Assembly: GCA_963704755.1 (NCBI GenBank) | Contig: OY969938.1 | Span: 3,750,001-3,782,000 of the forward strand | DNA: 32,000 nucleotides | From: an uncultured Chloroflexia bacterium | GTDB lineage: Bacteria > Chloroflexota > Anaerolineae > Anaerolineales > Anaerolineaceae | Direction: 5' to 3' | Shown: positions 4,459 to 30,413 of the stretch, one piece after another | Layout: each line of letters begins with the position of its first letter | How positions within the stretch are numbered: the stretch's first letter is position 1 | Translations under genes and position numbers: made by a program | The notes under the pieces: generated by a model | Seen by the model: only the letters and a program-made list of their open reading frames with translations | Told to the model about the DNA's origin: nothing | Database searches by the model: none

Positions 4459-4555
4459 GATATCTCCATTCGACTGGCGGGTTCGCTGCTCATGCAGGCG
4501 GAGCCAGGTGTTTGATTACTTTATTGAACTGATTTTAGCACGCTTCTAAAAAAAG

Positions 4556-4619
4556 TCAATATGTATATTGAATAAATTTAAAATTTAACTGAAATATATT
4601 GATATATTTAATAATTGCA
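4556..4619. promoter_or_regulatory. AT-rich promoter region with two operator-like palindromes upstream of the DUF2089 operon
   Basis: TCAATAT-gt-ATATTGA at 4556-4571 and AAATATA-ttga-TATATTT at 4602-4619, in a very AT-rich spacer about 100-160 nt upstream of the DUF2089 start (4458, minus strand). Confidence 0.35.
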
Positions 4620-7392: not shown

Positions 7393-7427
7393 AGGTAGAG
7401 TATAGGGAGTTTTTCCTGTATTCTTCC

Positions 7428-7645
7428 GTAGGGGCGAAGCCGCCGGCAGGTAGGCTTGGGAAGCAAAGGATATTGGCTCCGGCCGCTTCGCCCGCTACGC
7501 TGGCAGGCATAAAAAATGGGAGTTGCAACAGGCATTCGGCTCTTCCTGCCAAATTCTGGAAAAGTCTTTTGTTATAGCGGGCGAAGCGGCCGGAGCGAAT
7601 ACATATCCGCTTTCCAAGCTCGCCCGCCGGCTGCTTCGCCCCTAC
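7428..7645. repeat. REPIN-like nested inverted repeat (two REP pairs) 3' of the RAYT gene
   Basis: The outer arms are GTAGGGGCGAAGCCGCCGGCAGGTAGGCTTGGGAAGC (7428-7464) and its imperfect complement GCTTTCCAAGCTCGCCCGCCGGCTGCTTCGCCCCTAC (7609-7645). The inner arms are GGATATTGGCTCCGGCCGCTTCGCCCGCTA (7468-7497) and TATAGCGGGCGAAGCGGCCGGAGCGAATACATATCC (7574-7608). A central TGGCAGG/CCTGCCA stem is also present. The 5' GTAG is typical of REPs. Confidence 0.7.
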
Positions 7646-7662
7646 GCCAGATAGGGCAGCCA

Positions 7663-8256
7663 TCACCTGCGCCATTGGGACGGGTTATTCTCGATGTACG
7701 CGGCGATCTTTACCCATTCGGCCTCGTTGCGGATGACGTGTTCGTAATAATTCCGCTGCCAGACGGGCTTGCCAGGTGACTGTCCTAAAACGTTGATCCG
7801 CCGGGTGGTTACCGATTTGAAATACTGGATGATCGCGTTCAACGCCCCGGGTTCCGTTCCGTGGGGGTGGACGTCCTGGTCAACGGTCACGGCTTTCTTT
7901 GCGTTGCCCAGGCTCGTTTCCCGTATCGCCAAGACGCCATGGAAATGATCCGGCATGATTGCCCAGGTCTCCAGGGTGACGGGGAAATGAACGGCCAGGT
8001 TGCGCCAGGTTTGATCCACGCATTGGCCATACTGGTTCAAATGCATTGTTTCCCCAATTATTTCGCCAAATAAATGCCTGCGCTGATCACAGGCCAGGGT
8101 GACAAAATACCAGCCGGCCTGGGAATAATCAAAATCCCGCAGGCGGTTGGATTGGCGATCCAGGGCGATTGCAGCCTGCCTGTATTTCGAGGGCAATTCC
8201 CCAAAGAATGGGTTTTTGAGTGTTATTGTGGGGCGTAGCCCCACAATAACACTCAA
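7663..8256 (-). CDS. REP-associated tyrosine transposase (RAYT; IS200/IS605-like HUH Y1 transposase family)
   Basis: YDYS-type start DFDYSQAGWYFVTL, HUH motif MPDHFHGVLAI and catalytic-Tyr region WQRNYYEHVIRNE. The first ~20 codons of the track ORF run through a perfect palindrome, so the true start is probably the in-frame TTG at 8196 or nearby. Confidence 0.85.
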   Translation of the reverse strand: MSVIVGLRPTITLKNPFFGELPSKYRQAAIALDRQSNRLRDFDYSQAGWYFVTLACDQRRHLFGEIIGETMHLNQYGQCVDQTWRNLAVHFPVTLETWAIMPDHFHGVLAIRETSLGNAKKAVTVDQDVHPHGTEPGALNAIIQYFKSVTTRRINVLGQSPGKPVWQRNYYEHVIRNEAEWVKIAAYIENNPSQWRR

Positions 8257-8294
8257 AATTATCTCTCTGTTGGGACTAAATTGGCATGATGCGA
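8160..8294 (-). repeat. 135-bp hairpin-bearing repeat, copy A (inverted partner at 17214-17348)
   Basis: Contains the perfect 21-bp-stem palindrome TTTTGAGTGTTATTGTGGGGC-GTA-GCCCCACAATAACACTCAAAA (8214-8258). The reverse complement aligns with 17214-17348 with about 8 mismatches by hand alignment. Confidence 0.8.
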
Positions 8295-8364
8295 CTGCCT
8301 TGTTGGCGATCCGGTAGCGATTTCATCGGTTTTGCTCCCCCTGGAATTCGTAGATTTTGCCAAC

Positions 8365-10026: not shown

Positions 10027-10731
10027 ATGGTAGATCAATTGGTTATCGAAGCAGTGGATCTGAAAAAGATCTACAGGATGGGGGATGTAGAAGTACAGGC
10101 CTTGCGTGGCGCTTCGCTCAATATTTTGCGTGGCGAAGTTGTTGCCATCATGGGGCCCTCCGGCTCGGGAAAATCGACCCTGATGAATATCCTCGGTTGC
10201 CTGGACCGGCCGACCAGTGGCAAATATGTACTGGATGGCAGCCTGGTCTCGAACCTGCGCGACGACCAACTGGCGATTATCCGCAACCAGAAGGTCGGGT
10301 TCGTATTCCAGAGCTTCAATCTGCTCCCGCGGGCATCGGCCCTGGCCAACGTCGAGCTGCCTTTACGCTACGCCGGCCAGAGCAGCAGCGCCAGAAAGCG
10401 GGCGAAAGCGGTGCTGGAAATCGTCGGCCTGGGTGACCGGCTCCACCACAAACCAGCCGAGCTCTCGGGCGGCCAGCAGCAGCGGGTGGCGATCGCCCGT
10501 GCGCTGATCAACGACCCGGCCATCGTGATGGCTGACGAGCCAACCGGTAACCTGGATTCGAAGTCCGGGGCGGAGATCATGGAGCTGATCTTGACCCTCA
10601 ACAAGGAGCAGGGCACAACCGTAATCGTCGTCACCCACGACCCGCGCATTGCCGAACAAACTCAGCGGATCATTCACCTGTACGATGGTGTGGTCGTCGA
10701 AAACGAGCCGGAGTTCGACGTGGTTGGGTAG
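10027..10731 (+). CDS. ABC transporter ATP-binding protein (MacB/LolD/FtsE-like)
   Basis: Walker A GPSGSGKST, signature LSGGQQQRVAIARAL, Walker B IVMADEPTGNLD and H-loop VVTHD. ATG at 10027 after GAGGTGGGG; the track ORF begins further upstream at 9961. No adjacent FtsX-type permease. Confidence 0.93.
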   Translation: MVDQLVIEAVDLKKIYRMGDVEVQALRGASLNILRGEVVAIMGPSGSGKSTLMNILGCLDRPTSGKYVLDGSLVSNLRDDQLAIIRNQKVGFVFQSFNLLPRASALANVELPLRYAGQSSSARKRAKAVLEIVGLGDRLHHKPAELSGGQQQRVAIARALINDPAIVMADEPTGNLDSKSGAEIMELILTLNKEQGTTVIVVTHDPRIAEQTQRIIHLYDGVVVENEPEFDVVG

Positions 10732-10800
10732 CTCGGGTTTCAAACCCGAGGGAAGGCCAGCGCGGGTAAATTCTGGCTTTGAAAGCCGGGCTGAACTCGA
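10724..10800 (+). repeat. solo partial copy of the 153-bp tandem-repeat unit
   Basis: GGTAGCTCGGGTTTCAAACCCGAGGGAA ... CTGGCTTTGAAAGCCGGGCT matches the first ~75 nt of the units at 12495/12648/12801. It overlaps the ABC ATPase stop codon (TAG 10729-10731). Confidence 0.6.
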
Positions 10801-11812: not shown

Positions 11813-12211
11813 TTAAAGGGTTTGCTTTTTCTGGTCCAGGCGCTCATTGAACTGCTTTTGGTTGATGATGAACCGTTCGTGCTCGCCCTCACCGATCTTG
11901 TCCACCGCATCCCAGGCCTCGACTTTGAAGCGCAGCCGGCGGCGGTCCACTTCCAGCAGCTCAGCGCGGAAGCGTACCTGCATCCCCACCGGTGTGGCGG
12001 CCAGGTGACGGATGGTGACCGACATGCCCACGCTGCCCTGGCCTTCTTCCAGATAGGGTTCGATGGCCTGGTGTGCGGCGCGTTCCATGAATCCGATCAG
12101 GCGCGGTGTGCTGAACACTTCCGGGAAGGACTCGCCGCCGGAATAGCGGGCCGTATCCTCAGGCTGGACGGTGATGGTTAGTTCTTTGGTTAAACCGGGT
12201 TCGAGTGGCAT
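11813..12211 (-). CDS. hotdog-fold thioesterase (FlK/thioesterase-superfamily-like)
   Basis: 132-aa ORF. The pattern TITV..EDTA...G....VFSTP.LIGFME.AA is typical of small hotdog thioesterases. GAGGAAG RBS. It sits 44 nt upstream of the hydrolase on the same strand. Confidence 0.8.
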   Translation of the reverse strand: MPLEPGLTKELTITVQPEDTARYSGGESFPEVFSTPRLIGFMERAAHQAIEPYLEEGQGSVGMSVTIRHLAATPVGMQVRFRAELLEVDRRRLRFKVEAWDAVDKIGEGEHERFIINQKQFNERLDQKKQTL

Positions 12212-12235: not shown

Positions 12236-12284
12236 TTTCATGTTTCCATTCTGGCAGCTTTGCTGCCAGAATGGAAACATGAAA
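12236..12284. other. long perfect hairpin (23-bp stem, 3-nt loop)
   Basis: TTTCATGTTTCCATTCTGGCAGC-ttt-GCTGCCAGAATGGAAACATGAAA, between the thioesterase start and the tandem array. TTTTT follows 4 nt later on the + strand. Confidence 0.7.
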
Positions 12285-12349: not shown

Positions 12350-12985
12350 TTTAGGGCTCCGGGCTTTCGCTCGACGACCCTGGTAGCCCGGCATTCAAAG
12401 CCGGGTTCTTTGTCGATGTCGAAGAGCGGGCTCGGTCTGGAGACCGGCCCGAACGCCGGCGGGAAACCGTCTTGGAGGGCAAGCGCCGGGGCGTGGTAGC
12501 TCGGGTTTCAAACCCGAGGGAACCTATGCCTGGGCGCATTCCGGTTTTCAAAGCCGGGTTCTTTGCCAAAATGGAAGAGCGGGCTCGGTCTGGAGACCGG
12601 CCCGAACGCCGGCGGGAAACCGTCTTGGAAGGCAAGCGCCTGGGTGTGGTAGCTCGGGATTCAAACCCGAGGGAACCTCCGCCTGGGCGCATTCCGGTTT
12701 TCAAAGCCGGGTTCTTTGTCGATGTCGCAGAGCGGGCTCGGTCTGGAGACCGGCCCGAACACCGGCGGGAAGCCGTCTTGGAAGGCAAGCGCCAGGGTAG
12801 GGTAGCTCGGGTTTCAAACCCGAGGGAACCTCGGCCTGGGCGCATTCCGGCTTTCAAAGCCGGGTTCTTTGCCAAAATGGAAGAACGGGCTCGGTCTGGA
12901 GACCGGCCCGAACGCCGGCGGGAAGCCGTCTTGGAAGGCAAGCGCCGGGGATTGGTAGCTCGGGTTTCAAACCCGGGGGAACGCT
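12350..12985. repeat. 153-bp tandem repeat array, about 4.2 copies with A/B alternation (306-bp higher-order period)
   Basis: GGTAGCTCGGG recurs at 12495, 12648, 12801 and 12954, an exact 153-nt spacing. A degenerate unit precedes 12495. Each unit has three hairpins: CTCGGGTTTCAAACCCGAG, CCGG(T/C)TTTCAAAGCCGG and CGGGCTCGGTCTGGAGACCGGCCCG. One segment alternates between TCGATGTCG(A/C)AGAG and CCAAAATGGAAGA(G/A). Confidence 0.9.
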
Positions 12986-13060
12986 TGACTGGTTTTGGAC
13001 AAGGGTAGCATTTATGGAGCCGGTTTTGCCCGGATTGACAGGCGCTCGCCCTCACCCCAA

Positions 13061-13086
13061 CCCCTCTCCCAGAAGCGGGAGAGGGG
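13061..13086 (-). terminator. GC-rich hairpin downstream of the large membrane-protein gene
   Basis: CCCCTCTCCC-agaagc-GGGAGAGGGG, a 10-bp stem, 100 nt past the stop at 13187. No clear U-tract, so terminator function is uncertain. Confidence 0.35.
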
Positions 13087-13186: not shown

Positions 13187-15016
13187 CTAGCGTGTAAAAA
13201 AGGCAGCGATCTGGGCATACAACCGGGGATTATTGGCCATGAAGCGCTGGTCGGGGGCCTGGAAGGCGGCCAGCAGGCTGATGCTGATCGAAACGACGAT
13301 CAACATCACAGCGGCCAGGTGGAGCAGTACCCGCCAGTACGGGTGGGACGGGCTGGCGCGGAGCTGGTGGGCCGTCCAATACCAGCCGATCGCCGCGACC
13401 ACCACCAACAGCGGGGTCGCGTCGGCCAGGTAACGCATGGTGCTAAAGATAAAGATCAGGATGGTGAAAAACGCCAGCAAAGCCCCGCCGCCGGCCAGGA
13501 GAACCAGCCAGGAAAGGACCCGAGAGGCGACCAGCCCGGCCGGGGCCGGCCGCTCGTGGAGCCAGGCGGTGAATCGCCGCAGAGATCCGCTCAATGGCGC
13601 CAGGCCGATGAGAACCGCCGGGGTGCTCAAGAGGAGGCCGCTAACCGGTTCGGCATAGACGTAATTCGGGGGCGGTTGAATGAAGAAAGGCCAGCTCGTT
13701 TGCTTCAGGAAGGGGGTAAACAGGAAGGGAAATTCATGCCAGTGAATCAGGAGCGGCCGGAAGGCGTAGTTGTATAGATTGGGAACCAGGTAAGCCAGGG
13801 AGGTGGTCAGGCTGTAATCTGCCGGCAAGGACAGGCCGGTAAGCTGGTAGCGGTGTCCGGTCTCGAGAATCGAGCCGAAACGGGCAAAGTTATACCAGGC
13901 CATCCCGGCCGCGAAGATGCCCAGCGGGACAAGCAGGCTGGCCAATAAGGCTATCTTTTTCCTCAGGCTGGACTGCTTGTCGATCCAGGCCAGCCAGGCC
14001 ACAGCCAGCAGCACGAACAAGATGATCTCGATGGCCAGGTCCACCCGGCTGTTGGCGGCCAGTCCCCAGGAGATGCCGGCCAGGACCAGGAAAACCGGCC
14101 GGGCCGGTGGCTGCGCCAGCCCGCGCAAGAAGAGCGCCAGCCCGAGAATCAAAAAGCACTGTCCGGAGGCAATGGCGGTTTCGTATACGTCCGGCCGGTT
14201 GATCAGCCAGAGCATGGGCAGGGCCAGCCCGCCCAACAGGGCCAACGGAAAGAGCGGCCAGGCGGGTGAGCGGCTGAAAAAGAGTTTGCGGATCAGCCAG
14301 AGCAGCCAGGTAAAGGCCAGGGCGAACCCGGCCATGAAACCCAAAAGAAGATATTGGTCCTCGACCACGACCGGGACGATCGCTTTGACCAGCGCCGCGA
14401 ATAGAGCCGGGACCGGCCCGAAATAGAGGTAGTAATTGCCATTGTAAAGCGATGCGTCCCAAAGGACCGGGATGCCCTCGCGGTTGTGATAATCGTAGGG
14501 CTGGGCCAGGGCGAGCAGCTCGGCCGAAGGCTTTTCGATCAAAGAGAGCTGCCCATGCAGAAAACCGTCGGCCAGTTGGTCGTAATAATGCGAGTAAGGC
14601 GTCCAGGTGCCCCAGGTGCCGGCGGTGATATACCAAAAATAACTTATCAGAACGATGGCCGCGCCGGCGTAACTATAGGACAACCCGCGGCGGTTCAAGC
14701 GGCTTTCATCCGCAAGCCGAACGGAGCCGCGACCGTCTATGGAAACGCCCAGGCGATCCAGGCGGGCAGCGATCGCCAGCCAGCCGGCAGTTGTTTTGAT
14801 TTTGGCCATAAGCCGGCCGAGCTGGCGATGAAGGGTCAATAGCAAAAACAGCACCAGGGCCAGGCTGCCCAGGATAAAGGTGATAATCCGCCCGCGGCCC
14901 CAGCCCGGGTCATTGTCAATGCCCAATTGAACAGCAAAGATACTTCCGAGGGTGAATGAAATTCCGAAGAGAAGCGAGAGGCCTTGCAAGATGAGACGGG
15001 CGATTTTTACTCGCAA
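13187..15016 (-). CDS. large polytopic membrane protein, possibly a GT-C/ArnT-PMT-like glycosyltransferase
   Basis: More than 12 hydrophobic segments. The track ORF (to 15292) overlaps the upstream SBP gene in another frame and has an Arg/Pro-rich non-protein-like head. The in-frame TTG at 15016 (MRVKIARLILQGL...) lies 20 nt after the SBP stop. Confidence 0.65.
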   Translation of the reverse strand: MRVKIARLILQGLSLLFGISFTLGSIFAVQLGIDNDPGWGRGRIITFILGSLALVLFLLLTLHRQLGRLMAKIKTTAGWLAIAARLDRLGVSIDGRGSVRLADESRLNRRGLSYSYAGAAIVLISYFWYITAGTWGTWTPYSHYYDQLADGFLHGQLSLIEKPSAELLALAQPYDYHNREGIPVLWDASLYNGNYYLYFGPVPALFAALVKAIVPVVVEDQYLLLGFMAGFALAFTWLLWLIRKLFFSRSPAWPLFPLALLGGLALPMLWLINRPDVYETAIASGQCFLILGLALFLRGLAQPPARPVFLVLAGISWGLAANSRVDLAIEIILFVLLAVAWLAWIDKQSSLRKKIALLASLLVPLGIFAAGMAWYNFARFGSILETGHRYQLTGLSLPADYSLTTSLAYLVPNLYNYAFRPLLIHWHEFPFLFTPFLKQTSWPFFIQPPPNYVYAEPVSGLLLSTPAVLIGLAPLSGSLRRFTAWLHERPAPAGLVASRVLSWLVLLAGGGALLAFFTILIFIFSTMRYLADATPLLVVVAAIGWYWTAHQLRASPSHPYWRVLLHLAAVMLIVVSISISLLAAFQAPDQRFMANNPRLYAQIAAFFTR

Positions 15017-17128: not shown

Positions 17129-17213
17129 GGCCTGCTCGATTGATTTAGGATGGGATAATTGTAACTGGAAATGGGAAAGAAGTCGATCAAGCGATGGGCG
17201 GTGAGCAGGGCAA

Positions 17214-17348
17214 TCGCATTATGCCAATTTAGTCCCAACGGAGAGATAATTTTGAGTGTTATTGTGGGACGTAGCCCCACAATAACACTCAAAAACCCAT
17301 TCTTTGGGGAATTGCCCTCGAAAAGCAGGCAGGCTGCAATCGCCCTGG
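17214..17348 (+). repeat. 135-bp hairpin-bearing repeat, copy B (inverted partner of 8160-8294)
   Basis: Contains TTTTGAGTGTTATTGTGGGAC-GTA-GCCCCACAATAACACTCAAAA (17250-17294). No RAYT gene is attached. The 61-aa track ORF 17171-17356 is just this repeat read through. Confidence 0.8.
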
Positions 17349-18668: not shown

Positions 18669-18725
18669 TTTAAGTGTGTTTTTATTCGTGGCGGCGTAGC
18701 CGCCACGAATAAAAACACACTTAAA
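18669..18725. terminator. 57-nt perfect palindrome (27-bp stem, GTA loop) between convergent genes
   Basis: TTTAAGTGTGTTTTTATTCGTGGCGGC-GTA-GCCGCCACGAATAAAAACACACTTAAA. It shares the GC-rich tip, GTA loop and AT-rich base with the 8214-8258 hairpin. Confidence 0.65.
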
Positions 18726-22355: not shown

Positions 22356-22475
22356 CACAAAAAATGGGACAGAACAAATAATAAACTTATTTTATGCTTA
22401 AGTATAGTAAAACGATAGAATTTTTCCAGTAAGTTAAGGATGATATTTGGATTAACCCGTTGCGGGGGAGGAATG

Positions 22476-22520
22476 AACCACGGAGGCACGGAGAAAAGAA
22501 AGAGAAGAAGAGAAAAAATA
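22476..22520 (+). repeat. island-boundary motif, copy 1 (AACCACGGAGGCACGGAG + purine tract)
   Basis: AACCACGGAGGCACGGAGAAAAGAAAGAGAAGAAGAG... matches the reverse complement of 26906-26948, except for one missing AGCACGGAG unit. Confidence 0.75.
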
Positions 22521-22644: not shown

Positions 22645-22681
22645 AACCACGGAGGCACGGAGAGCACGGAGGAGAAAAAAG
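22645..22681 (+). repeat. island-boundary motif, copy 2
   Basis: AACCACGGAGGCACGGAGAGCACGGAGGAGAAAAAAG. The first 27 nt are identical to the reverse complement of 26922-26948. Confidence 0.75.
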
Positions 22682-22730
22682 ATTTTAAGGAGTTTAGGAC
22701 GAAAAAAAAAGTTTGGTTGAAAGCGGATCA

Positions 22731-26905: not shown

Positions 26906-26948
26906 CCTCTTCTTTTCTTTTCTCCGTGCTCTCCGTGCCTCCGTGGTT
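26906..26948 (-). repeat. island-boundary motif, copy 3 (inverted)
   Basis: CCTCTTCTTTTCTTTTCTCCGTGCTCTCCGTGCCTCCGTGGTT is the reverse complement of AACCACGGAGGCACGGAGAGCACGGAGAAAAGAAAAGAAGAGG. Confidence 0.75.
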
Positions 26949-27078
26949 AATATCTCTTAACTATTCTTTGAAATTAAACTCAATATTAATTTTCGGTTAC
27001 AATATGGGTTGAAATTACCGGGCGGCAGGGATTCGTCCCTCAACCCACAACAACCTCTACGAATACAGGCATTCGCTA

Positions 27079-30206: not shown

Positions 30207-30237
30207 AGATGGCCCGGCTTTCAAAGCCGGGCCATCT
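30207..30237 (+). terminator. hairpin after the ABC operon (carries the CCGGCTTTCAAAGCCGG motif)
   Basis: AGATGGCCCGGCTTT-c-AAAGCCGGGCCATCT, a 15-bp stem, 9 nt after the permease stop. No U-tract. The core is identical to hairpin 2 of the tandem-repeat unit. Confidence 0.5.
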
Positions 30238-30264
30238 GTCAATATGGCCTTCCACTGGTATAAT
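30237..30264 (+). promoter_or_regulatory. candidate extended -10 promoter for glyQS
   Basis: TGTCAA (30237-30242), 16-nt spacer, then TGgTATAAT (30256-30264), about 150 nt upstream of the glyQS ATG. Confidence 0.5.
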
Positions 30265-30305
30265 CTGATTGCAGTAGCTGCCTGGGTTCTGTTAAAAAGC
30301 AGCAT

Positions 30306-30352
30306 GTTTTTGAGGTTTTTCGCGTGTGTTGCACGCGAAAAACCTCAAAAAC
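30306..30352. other. perfect 21-bp-stem hairpin in the glyQS leader
   Basis: GTTTTTGAGGTTTTTCGCGTG-tgttg-CACGCGAAAAACCTCAAAAAC. Confidence 0.7.
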
Positions 30353-30413
30353 ACGCCTAATCTCCAGAATACCAGGGGGGAGACTGCTGGTATTTTCGTT
30401 CATTGGAGCAGGT

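Follow-up and report, generated by a model that had tools for sequence, protein, structure and literature searches.

Organization of the locus

The 32,000-nt stretch analysed here (hereafter the window) belongs to an uncultured Chloroflexia bacterium of the family Anaerolineaceae (GenBank assembly GCA_963704755.1, contig OY969938.1, positions 3,750,001 to 3,782,000 of the forward strand). It contains an array in which a block of 153 bp is present in about 3.9 head-to-tail copies. The spacer holding the array is flanked by two minus-strand genes, encoding a membrane glycosyltransferase-like protein and an FlK-type thioesterase, the latter followed by an alpha/beta hydrolase gene (Table 1). This is the one strong tandem array in the window: Tandem Repeats Finder reports it at 12394-12982 with a period of 153, 3.8 copies, 91% matches, 0% indels and a score of 975. 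By unit alignment and nhmmer, a degenerate left unit can be followed from about 12385. The register marker GGTAGCTCGGG lies at 12495, 12648, 12801 and 12954, and full units start at GGTAGC, the first at 12495. This exact recurrence, the degenerate unit preceding it and an identity of about 95% between like units (about 8 differences between units 1 and 3) had been described in an earlier reading of the locus, here called the original prediction. All three points are borne out by our alignment, in which units 1 and 3 are 94.8% identical (8 differences/153), units 1 and 2 90.8% and units 2 and 3 90.2%. The three hairpins per unit described there are likewise present in every full unit, against a chance expectation of 0-0.05 matches per hairpin pattern. 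All modules of the array are arranged head-to-tail in a single orientation.

Columns 71-78 of the unit carry either TCGATGTC or CCAAAATG, in the strict order B-A-B-A, and the two versions of this A/B patch differ at five positions inside 8 nt. The original prediction had noticed the alternation and deduced from it a 306-bp higher-order repeat. The alternation is confirmed, but the higher-order repeat is not established, because it rests on one 8-nt patch and two A plus two B copies would alternate by chance in one case in three. Outside the patch, identity at a lag of 153 (94.4%) is not below that at a lag of 306 (92.9%). Amplification of a two-unit (306-bp) block, unsupported outside these 8 nt, was thus rejected. 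Both patches are perfect mini-palindromes (CCA-AAA-TGG in A and TCGA-TG-TCGA in B), and the sequence GTCAATATGG at 30238-30247 is intermediate between them. Speculatively, the A/B patch may be a product of hairpin-templated correction.

Table 1. Features of the array, its neighbourhood and related elements elsewhere in the window (positions in nt from the first letter of the window)
Feature	Position	Strand	Description and basis
Whole array	12385-12992	+	Tandem Repeats Finder; in-register unit alignment; nhmmer unit profile, E 1e-54 to 3e-06
Array units	partial unit 0, 12385-12494; full units 1-3, 12495-12647, 12648-12800, 12801-12953	+	
Unit 4, truncated	12954-12992	+	only hairpin 1 retained
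Hairpin 1 (REP-A)	12495-12518; also 12648-12671, 12801-12824, 12954-12977	+	GGTAG-CTCGGGTT-TCA-AACCCGAG; sequence, fold
Hairpin 2	12541-12557; also 12388-12404, 12694-12710, 12847-12863	+	CCGGYTTTCAAAGCCGG, then GTTCTTTG
A/B patch	12566-12575 (unit columns 71-80)	+	A, CCAAAATGGA at 12566, 12872; B, TCGATGTCGA/C at 12413, 12719
Hairpin 3 (REP-B)	12580-12607; also 12427-12454, 12733-12760, 12886-12913	+	CG-GGC-T-CGGTC-TGGA-GACCG-GCC-CG, then tail AAC
Solo copy, unit columns 1-66	10727-10792	+	repeat search; nhmmer E 5e-12
Hairpin-2-like element	30208-30247	+	exact CCGGCTTTCAAAGCCGGG within an 11-bp terminator-like stem, then GTCAATATGG; nhmmer E 4e-4
RAYT-like Y1 (HUH) transposase gene	7663-8256	-	DHFH, WQ and YIENNP motifs; motif scan of all ORFs
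Imperfect palindrome, 225 nt	7427-7651		directly 3' of the RAYT-like gene; DNA fold -84 kcal/mol, z -10
ORF, 234 aa	12351-13055	-	crosses the array
ORF, 178 aa	12472-13008	+	crosses the array
Membrane glycosyltransferase-like gene, 609 aa	13187-15016	-	P0002 100% identical; PF02366 in some homologues; upstream neighbour of the array
Hairpin	13061-13086		10-bp stem CCCCTCTCCC/GGGAGAGGGG, in the gap separating the glycosyltransferase gene's end from the array; read from the sequence
Promoter-like box CTTCTGGTAAAATCAA	12315-12330	-	extended -10 TGGTAAAAT; conserved with contig L002
Hairpin	12236-12284		perfect 23-bp stem, 3-nt loop; flanked by the promoter-like box on one side and the ribosome-binding site of the thioesterase gene on the other; repeat search
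FlK-type thioesterase gene	11813-12211	-	Pfam FlK E 3.6e-41; downstream neighbour of the array

Hairpins 1 and 2

Repetitive extragenic palindromic (REP) elements are recognized by a tetranucleotide, GTAG or GTGG, placed 0-2 nt 5' of a hairpin, which has either a paired basal stem of 7-20 nt, a loop of 2-5 nt and a G+C-rich foot, or two stems with a 1-3-nt bulge (PMC6006769; PMC3733652). By this structural definition hairpin 1 (REP-A) is a GTAG REP. Its GTAG stands immediately before a fully paired stem of 8 bp with the 3-nt loop TCA and the foot CTCG, and lies 0 nt from the stem in 5 of 5 array copies as well as in the solo copy; one copy has an A·A mismatch. The solo copy is found 1.7 kb from the array between convergent genes, beginning at the stop codon of an ABC ATPase gene, and consists of the exact 28-nt hairpin 1 with GGTAGC (10727-10754) and, after it, a stem that resembles hairpin 2 but has an inverted loop.

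Hairpin 2 varies the design of hairpin 1. Column 50, opposite G, is C or T, and GGTAGC precedes the left-edge copy only (12382). In three units, hairpin 2 and the TTCTTTG after it score as terminator-like on the plus strand, and the hairpin-2-like element at 30208-30247 starts 10 nt past a plus-strand open reading frame (ORF). Hairpin 1 has one match among 185,579 GTDB species genomes, on a Saprospiraceae contig that is probably unrelated. Hairpin 1 and its variant hairpin 2 appear confined to the source genome. The Saprospiraceae contig, a metagenome-assembled genome sequence (L001), carries at 4546-4605 the adjacent hairpins ACTCGGATTTCAAATCCGAGT and GCTCGGGTTTCAAACCCGAGT, with the TTTCAAA loop of hairpin 1. 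The members of this pair differ by a compensated A-T/G-C change, and the likeness to hairpin 1 is possibly due to chance.

Hairpin 3 and the REP-B family

Hairpin 3 (REP-B) and its AAC tail form a 28-mer that is identical in all four array copies. Its architecture, a 5-bp stem, a 1-nt bulge, a second 5-bp stem and a 4-nt loop, fits the two-stem REP form, with a basal stem shorter than 7 bp. Metagenomes contain the 21-mer core GGCTCGGTCTGGAGACCGGCC at 91 loci, and the hairpin-3 portion is the only part of the 153-nt unit that recurs there. A covariance model (R1) built from 102 distinct REP-B copies finds 200 copies in the 589 kb of metagenome loci carrying the core. Its matches in the window are the four array copies and nothing else (49-50 bits, E ~4e-10).

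The core search left the two base pairs outside the 21-mer unconstrained. These outer pairs covary, appearing as GT/AC, CG/CG, CT/AG, GC/GC, GG/CC and AT/AT. There are 71 double-change cells, where shuffles give 25.9±3.5. Paired cells make up 97.5% of the total, a share that does not exceed 44% for a slid structure. One inner pair shows a compensated change from T-A to A-T. The 3' tail A-R-C is conserved, and the bulged base and the loop vary (TGGA, GGA, AGGA, GGGA, AGA). The commonest form, GTGG…CCAC, has a double foot and accounts for 67 of 159 copies. REP-B copies occur as singletons, as inverted dimers with tails pointing outward, as tandem arrays with a period of 36-46 bp and with two-unit periods of 78-79 bp. 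By rough gene calls, in which the caller also scored array ORFs as genes, 8 contexts are convergent and 2 divergent, and by the same calls the orientation of REP-B relative to genes has no clear bias. Nor is there a strand-specific G·U signal, one-strand mispairs numbering 12 versus 17. With stems maintained by compensatory changes and no strand preference, REP-B behaves as a family of DNA palindromes rather than as a strand-specific RNA.

REP-B carrier loci have a G+C content of 44-69%, and three of the contigs encode proteins that NCBI names as Anaerolineae or Chloroflexota. All-against-all clustering of ORFs from the 91 loci identified only generic families, such as ABC ATPases, as recurrent proteins beside REP-B. 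In L093, an ORF flanked by inverted REP-B arrays has a sequence resembling a hexapeptide-repeat acetyltransferase rather than a transposase. Literature searches found neither the hairpin-3 core sequence nor the REP-B family nor the composite 153-bp cluster, and there is no Rfam match. In six loci (L012, L016, L037, L057, L060 and L071), the 3' half of REP-B with its tail (GGAGACCGGCC-NN-AGC…), often repeated once or twice in tandem directly after the full hairpin with a period of ~17-20 nt, hints at a point of slippage or cleavage in the loop. Very large arrays, in which full REP-B copies and the variant GGCTCGGTCTGGAGACACGGCCGCAGCGGAGG extend over hundreds of bases with long spurious ORFs, are found in L003 (9100-9970) and L088 (420-2100).

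A RAYT-like transposase in the window

Four kilobases from the array lies a gene resembling those of REP-associated tyrosine transposases (RAYTs), the only ORF of the window with both HUH and YIxxNP motifs in a motif scan of all ORFs. Its true start is probably downstream of 8256. The protein scores 27.2 bits against Pfam Y1_Tnp (PF01797; cut-off 23) and 20.5 bits against the IS200 model, and its best NCBIfam match is NF047646, REP-associated tyrosine transposase (E 4e-19). The sole PDB match is to E. coli TnpA-REP (4ER8), which is weak (E 0.26) and has both motifs aligned. The 225-nt palindrome directly 3' of the gene ends in CGTAGGGGCGAAGC...GCTTCGCCCCTACG (GTAG...CTAC, a double foot), also written CGTAGGGG…CCCCTACG, and contains an inner GTAGCGGGCGAAGCGGCCGG pair. 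On the 5' side of the gene, GGTAGCGATTTCATCGG at 8312-8328 weakly resembles REP-A.

Comparison with RAYT subclass 2.4 (PMC6006769) reveals both likenesses and differences. The transposase shares the WQ, YIxNNP and HUH motifs and has 197 aa versus a subclass mean of 194; however, its HUH motif is DHFH and not NH[IFV]H. The palindrome on the 3' flank has a 5' GTAG, three G-C foot pairs and a 3' CTAC, but at 225 nt it is far longer than a REP (PMC6006769). The commonest metagenomic REP-B, with GTGG…CCAC feet and a stem-bulge-stem, is similar to the long, double-foot REPs of subclass 2.4, whereas the REP-B of the window departs from them in its CGGG…CCCG feet and in its basal stem of 5 bp instead of at least 7 (PMC6006769). 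These resemblances are best regarded as leads.

An inverted pair of 143-nt elements (8160-8302 and 17206-17348), 93% complementary and each with a perfect 21-bp palindrome (TTTTGAGTGTTATTGTGGGGC…) at its centre, brackets 8.9 kb including the array, and one of the two overlaps the RAYT ORF at its 5' end. In the nearest syntenic contig retrieved (L002), Sdh genes also lie beside a Nudix gene, which argues against a mobile island between the 143-nt copies.

The array as a probable extragenic cluster of REP-type elements

The 153-bp block consists of hairpins 1 and 2 (GTAG-type), one REP-B and short linker DNA. We consider that the array is probably a non-coding extragenic cluster of such REP-type palindromic elements, in which the block was tandemly amplified in the spacer that separates the glycosyltransferase gene's 3' end from the thioesterase-hydrolase operon promoter. 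This reading is based on the GTAG-tagged hairpins, the solo copy, the dispersed and covarying REP-B family and the RAYT-like gene in the window, and it agrees with one of the options of the original prediction, a REP mosaic resembling bacterial interspersed mosaic elements (BIMEs). The extragenic placement fits the known preference of REPs as well, the array being located between unidirectional genes and the solo copy between convergent ones.

Several observations weigh against a REP cluster. REP-A is seen at two loci only in the 32-kb window, and hairpin 1 had no match in metagenomes or viral contigs, nor in plasmids by blastn. The hairpins of the array are uniformly head-to-tail, whereas inverted pairs are dominant in classical REP families. 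Window copies of REP-B have CGGG…CCCG feet with CG/CG closing pairs and neither a GTAG nor a GTGG tag. The NCBIfam score of the RAYT-like protein (68.9 bits) is below the curated cut-off of 80. The palindromes flanking its gene differ in sequence from both REP-A and REP-B, so that the pairing of transposase and REPs is circumstantial. Finally, the whole array folds better on the plus strand (-347 kcal/mol) than on the minus strand (-292 kcal/mol), and one-sided C-to-T changes in unit columns 50 and 150 leave pairs that are kept only as G·U on the plus strand.

If the array is a REP cluster, a RAYT-type transposase acting on single-strand DNA would have seeded its hairpins, or they would have been copied from REP sites elsewhere. 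The three-hairpin block could then have grown through unequal recombination or replication slippage from one hairpin to its neighbour, as described for REP clusters (PMC3733652). Any effect would presumably be passive: read-through transcripts of the glycosyltransferase gene would end in stacked stable hairpins. These might stabilise the 3' end or block transcription, separating the glycosyltransferase gene from the downstream promoter. REP/RAYT biology is known mostly from Proteobacteria and Cyanobacteria, and a cluster of this type would mean that it also shapes the intergenic DNA of Anaerolineae. The array is an ordinary kind of bacterial repeat and not a new RNA, protein or kind of system. 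The covariance model R1 can be used to mask REP-B in metagenome annotation and to study the expansion of REP clusters.

Alternative explanations

The array could instead be a plain local minisatellite, an intergenic stretch with terminator-like hairpins that was duplicated by slippage and whose likeness to REPs is incidental. The two REP-A loci in the window, the lack of REP-A in the scanned collections save for the one probably unrelated GTDB match, the resemblance of hairpin 2 with TTCTTTG and of the stem at 30208-30236 to ordinary terminators, and the difference in sequence between the RAYT flanks and the hairpins of the array are all consistent with such an origin. Yet the exact 28-nt GGTAGC-hairpin is found again 1.7 kb off in a different intergenic spacer (nhmmer E 5e-12), GGTAGC also stands before the leftmost hairpin 2 of the array, hairpin 3 belongs to a large dispersed family with tandem clusters of its own, and a RAYT-like gene is present in the same window, making a plain minisatellite unlikely. 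We give a similarly small chance to the idea that REP-B is the recognition element of an uncharacterised protein and that its tandem arrays, including the 153-bp composite, have been selected as multi-site binding platforms or insulators. Candidates for the partner in that case would be a RAYT like those of subclass 2.4 or some other enzyme or regulator that binds hairpins and is conserved across Anaerolineae, and the core kept at G+C contents of 44-69%, the conserved tail, the covarying pairs and the tandem 3'-half hairpins would then reflect an active mechanism. As to a genuine repeat protein encoded by the 234-aa or the 178-aa ORF, the unit equals 51 codons, so that frames stay open, and the public annotation of the source genome includes the minus-strand ORF among its called genes (P0001). 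However, both strands are open simultaneously and the products are Arg/Ser/Pro-rich. Differences between units in the two long frames amount to 4 synonymous versus 22 non-synonymous codons and 3 versus 24, respectively, and the 19 variable columns are spread evenly over the codon positions, with no bias towards the third. Neither ORF has a match in Pfam, and the 234-aa ORF has no homologue but itself among 5.8 billion proteins. The non-synonymous excess and the lack of homologues and Pfam matches indicate that both ORFs are non-coding artefacts, as had been supposed from the sequence, and a real repeat protein is extremely improbable. P0001 is almost certainly a false gene and can be removed from the annotation of this complete Anaerolineae genome.

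Two further possibilities from the original prediction concern transcription. The first is a tandem structured-RNA locus. Here we take it that the array would specify tandem structured small RNAs, or one long structured RNA, read from the plus strand antisense to its neighbours, with hairpin 2 as the terminator and a two-domain fold per unit. The strand differences given above for the whole-array fold and for columns 50 and 150 speak for it, as do the folds of single units (-78 to -80 kcal/mol on the plus strand, z -3.9 to -5.1, versus -61 to -67 on the minus strand), the terminator-like hairpin 2 in three units and a GGA count of 20 on the plus strand versus 4 on the minus strand. The G-richness of the plus strand in itself favours G·U pairing, and with 14.7±3.2 GGA expected from composition the excess is within 1.7 standard deviations. 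Rfam gave 0 matches at the gathering threshold, both in the window and in 11 REP-B-rich loci, and sub-threshold scores over the array are at most ~20 bits versus cut-offs of 36-100. No plus-strand promoter-like site was found left of or within the array in a consensus scan. The full 153-nt unit was not found outside the source genome, its REP-B part alone being recurrent, and REP-B has neither an orientation bias (in the rough count) nor a strand-specific excess of G·U. In the extended stem around hairpin 1, broken pairs are as many as compensated ones among units. We therefore regard a structured RNA as improbable. Among specific RNA classes, a tRNA-like element was rejected (none by ARAGORN; Rfam tRNA-Sec at 17-20 bits versus a cut-off of 47), as was a CsrB/RsmZ-type RNA acting as a CsrA/Rsm sponge, given the non-significant GGA excess and the variable REP-B loop. 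According to the second possibility, transcription of the thioesterase-hydrolase operon starts on the minus strand at a promoter near 13045, and the array forms the operon's long structured 5' leader. Both neighbours are indeed on the minus strand, the array is upstream of the thioesterase gene, and a TGTCAA-N18-CATAAA site had been put forward as the leftward promoter. This site, however, matches only 2/6 positions of the -35 hexamer and is absent from the output of the consensus promoter scan. The conserved promoter-like box with the extended -10 TGGTAAAAT is found downstream of the array, between it and the gene, ~100-125 nt before the thioesterase start codon. In the alignment with L002, 15 identical columns, TTCTGGTAAAATCAA (L002 14050-14066), mark this box within FlK-upstream spacers that are otherwise unalignable, in two genomes whose proteins share only ~56% identity. 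The box is likely a promoter (extended -10) or an operator. The array is accordingly located upstream of the likely thioesterase promoter. L002, whose glycosyltransferase is 56% identical, has the gene order Sdh-Nudix-SBP-GT…FlK-hydrolase (GT, glycosyltransferase), with an extra gene for a CBM96-domain protein between the glycosyltransferase and FlK genes. It has no tandem array in a scan of the contig and no REP-B copy by model R1. The position of the box downstream of the array and the arrangement of the same genes in L002 without an array argue that the array is not the thioesterase leader, leaving this possibility very improbable.

Comparison with known repeat systems

The BIMEs of E. coli contain REPs alternating in inverted orientation (Y/Z) with defined linkers and have IHF, gyrase and Pol I as protein partners. 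The array resembles them as an intergenic, tandem mosaic of palindromic units and linkers downstream of a gene, and any effects would likewise be on mRNA 3' ends and transcription read-through. Unlike in BIMEs, its hairpins have a uniform orientation, and their sequence is unrelated to the E. coli REPs. Because of these differences in orientation and sequence, the array is BIME-like but falls outside the E. coli BIME family.

REP-type repeats are already on record for Chloroflexi, namely, the clustered GTAG-23 elements of Thermomicrobium roseum (Di Nocera et al. 2013, PMC3733652). With the GTAG REP families and clusters described in that work, the array shares short stem-loops that are rich in G+C and carry an unpaired GTAG at their 5' foot, an extragenic position between unidirectional or convergent genes, spurious ORFs over the clusters and a host from the Chloroflexi. 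It differs in that its sequence is unrelated to those families whose consensus was readable and in that its unit is 153 bp long and mixes two unrelated hairpin types, all head-to-tail (PMC3733652). The Neisseria intergenic mosaic elements (NIMEs) mentioned in the same paper are also intergenic mosaics interleaving members of different repeat families; however, their sequences and host phylum are unrelated and they are not regular tandem arrays (PMC3733652).

Neighbouring genes and other repeats

By its SdhA homologues, the source genome belongs to the Anaerolineae; the best matches are ~82% identical, the named ones being from Bellilinea, Longilinea, Thermanaerothrix and Anaerolineaceae. The two hairpins on either side of the array, at 12236-12284 (23 bp) and 13061-13086 (10 bp), both exist as described originally, the former by repeat search and the latter by direct reading. 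No T-run follows the 13061-13086 hairpin on either strand.

The 12236-12284 hairpin is one of several long perfect or near-perfect intergenic palindromes of the window (the others are at 1834-1900, 18669-18725 and 30302-30356), with arms of 23-32 bp and loops of 3-5 nt, each of a different sequence. Similar long palindromes are present in L002 at 13700-13760 and 13895-13935. Such palindromes seem to be a habit of the lineage, possibly serving as terminators. The window also contains a third repeat family, in which CACGGAGG octamers are followed by an A/G-rich tail. Its three copies, one of them inverted, are found at 22468-22514 and 22645-22682 on the plus strand and at 26910-26956 on the minus strand.

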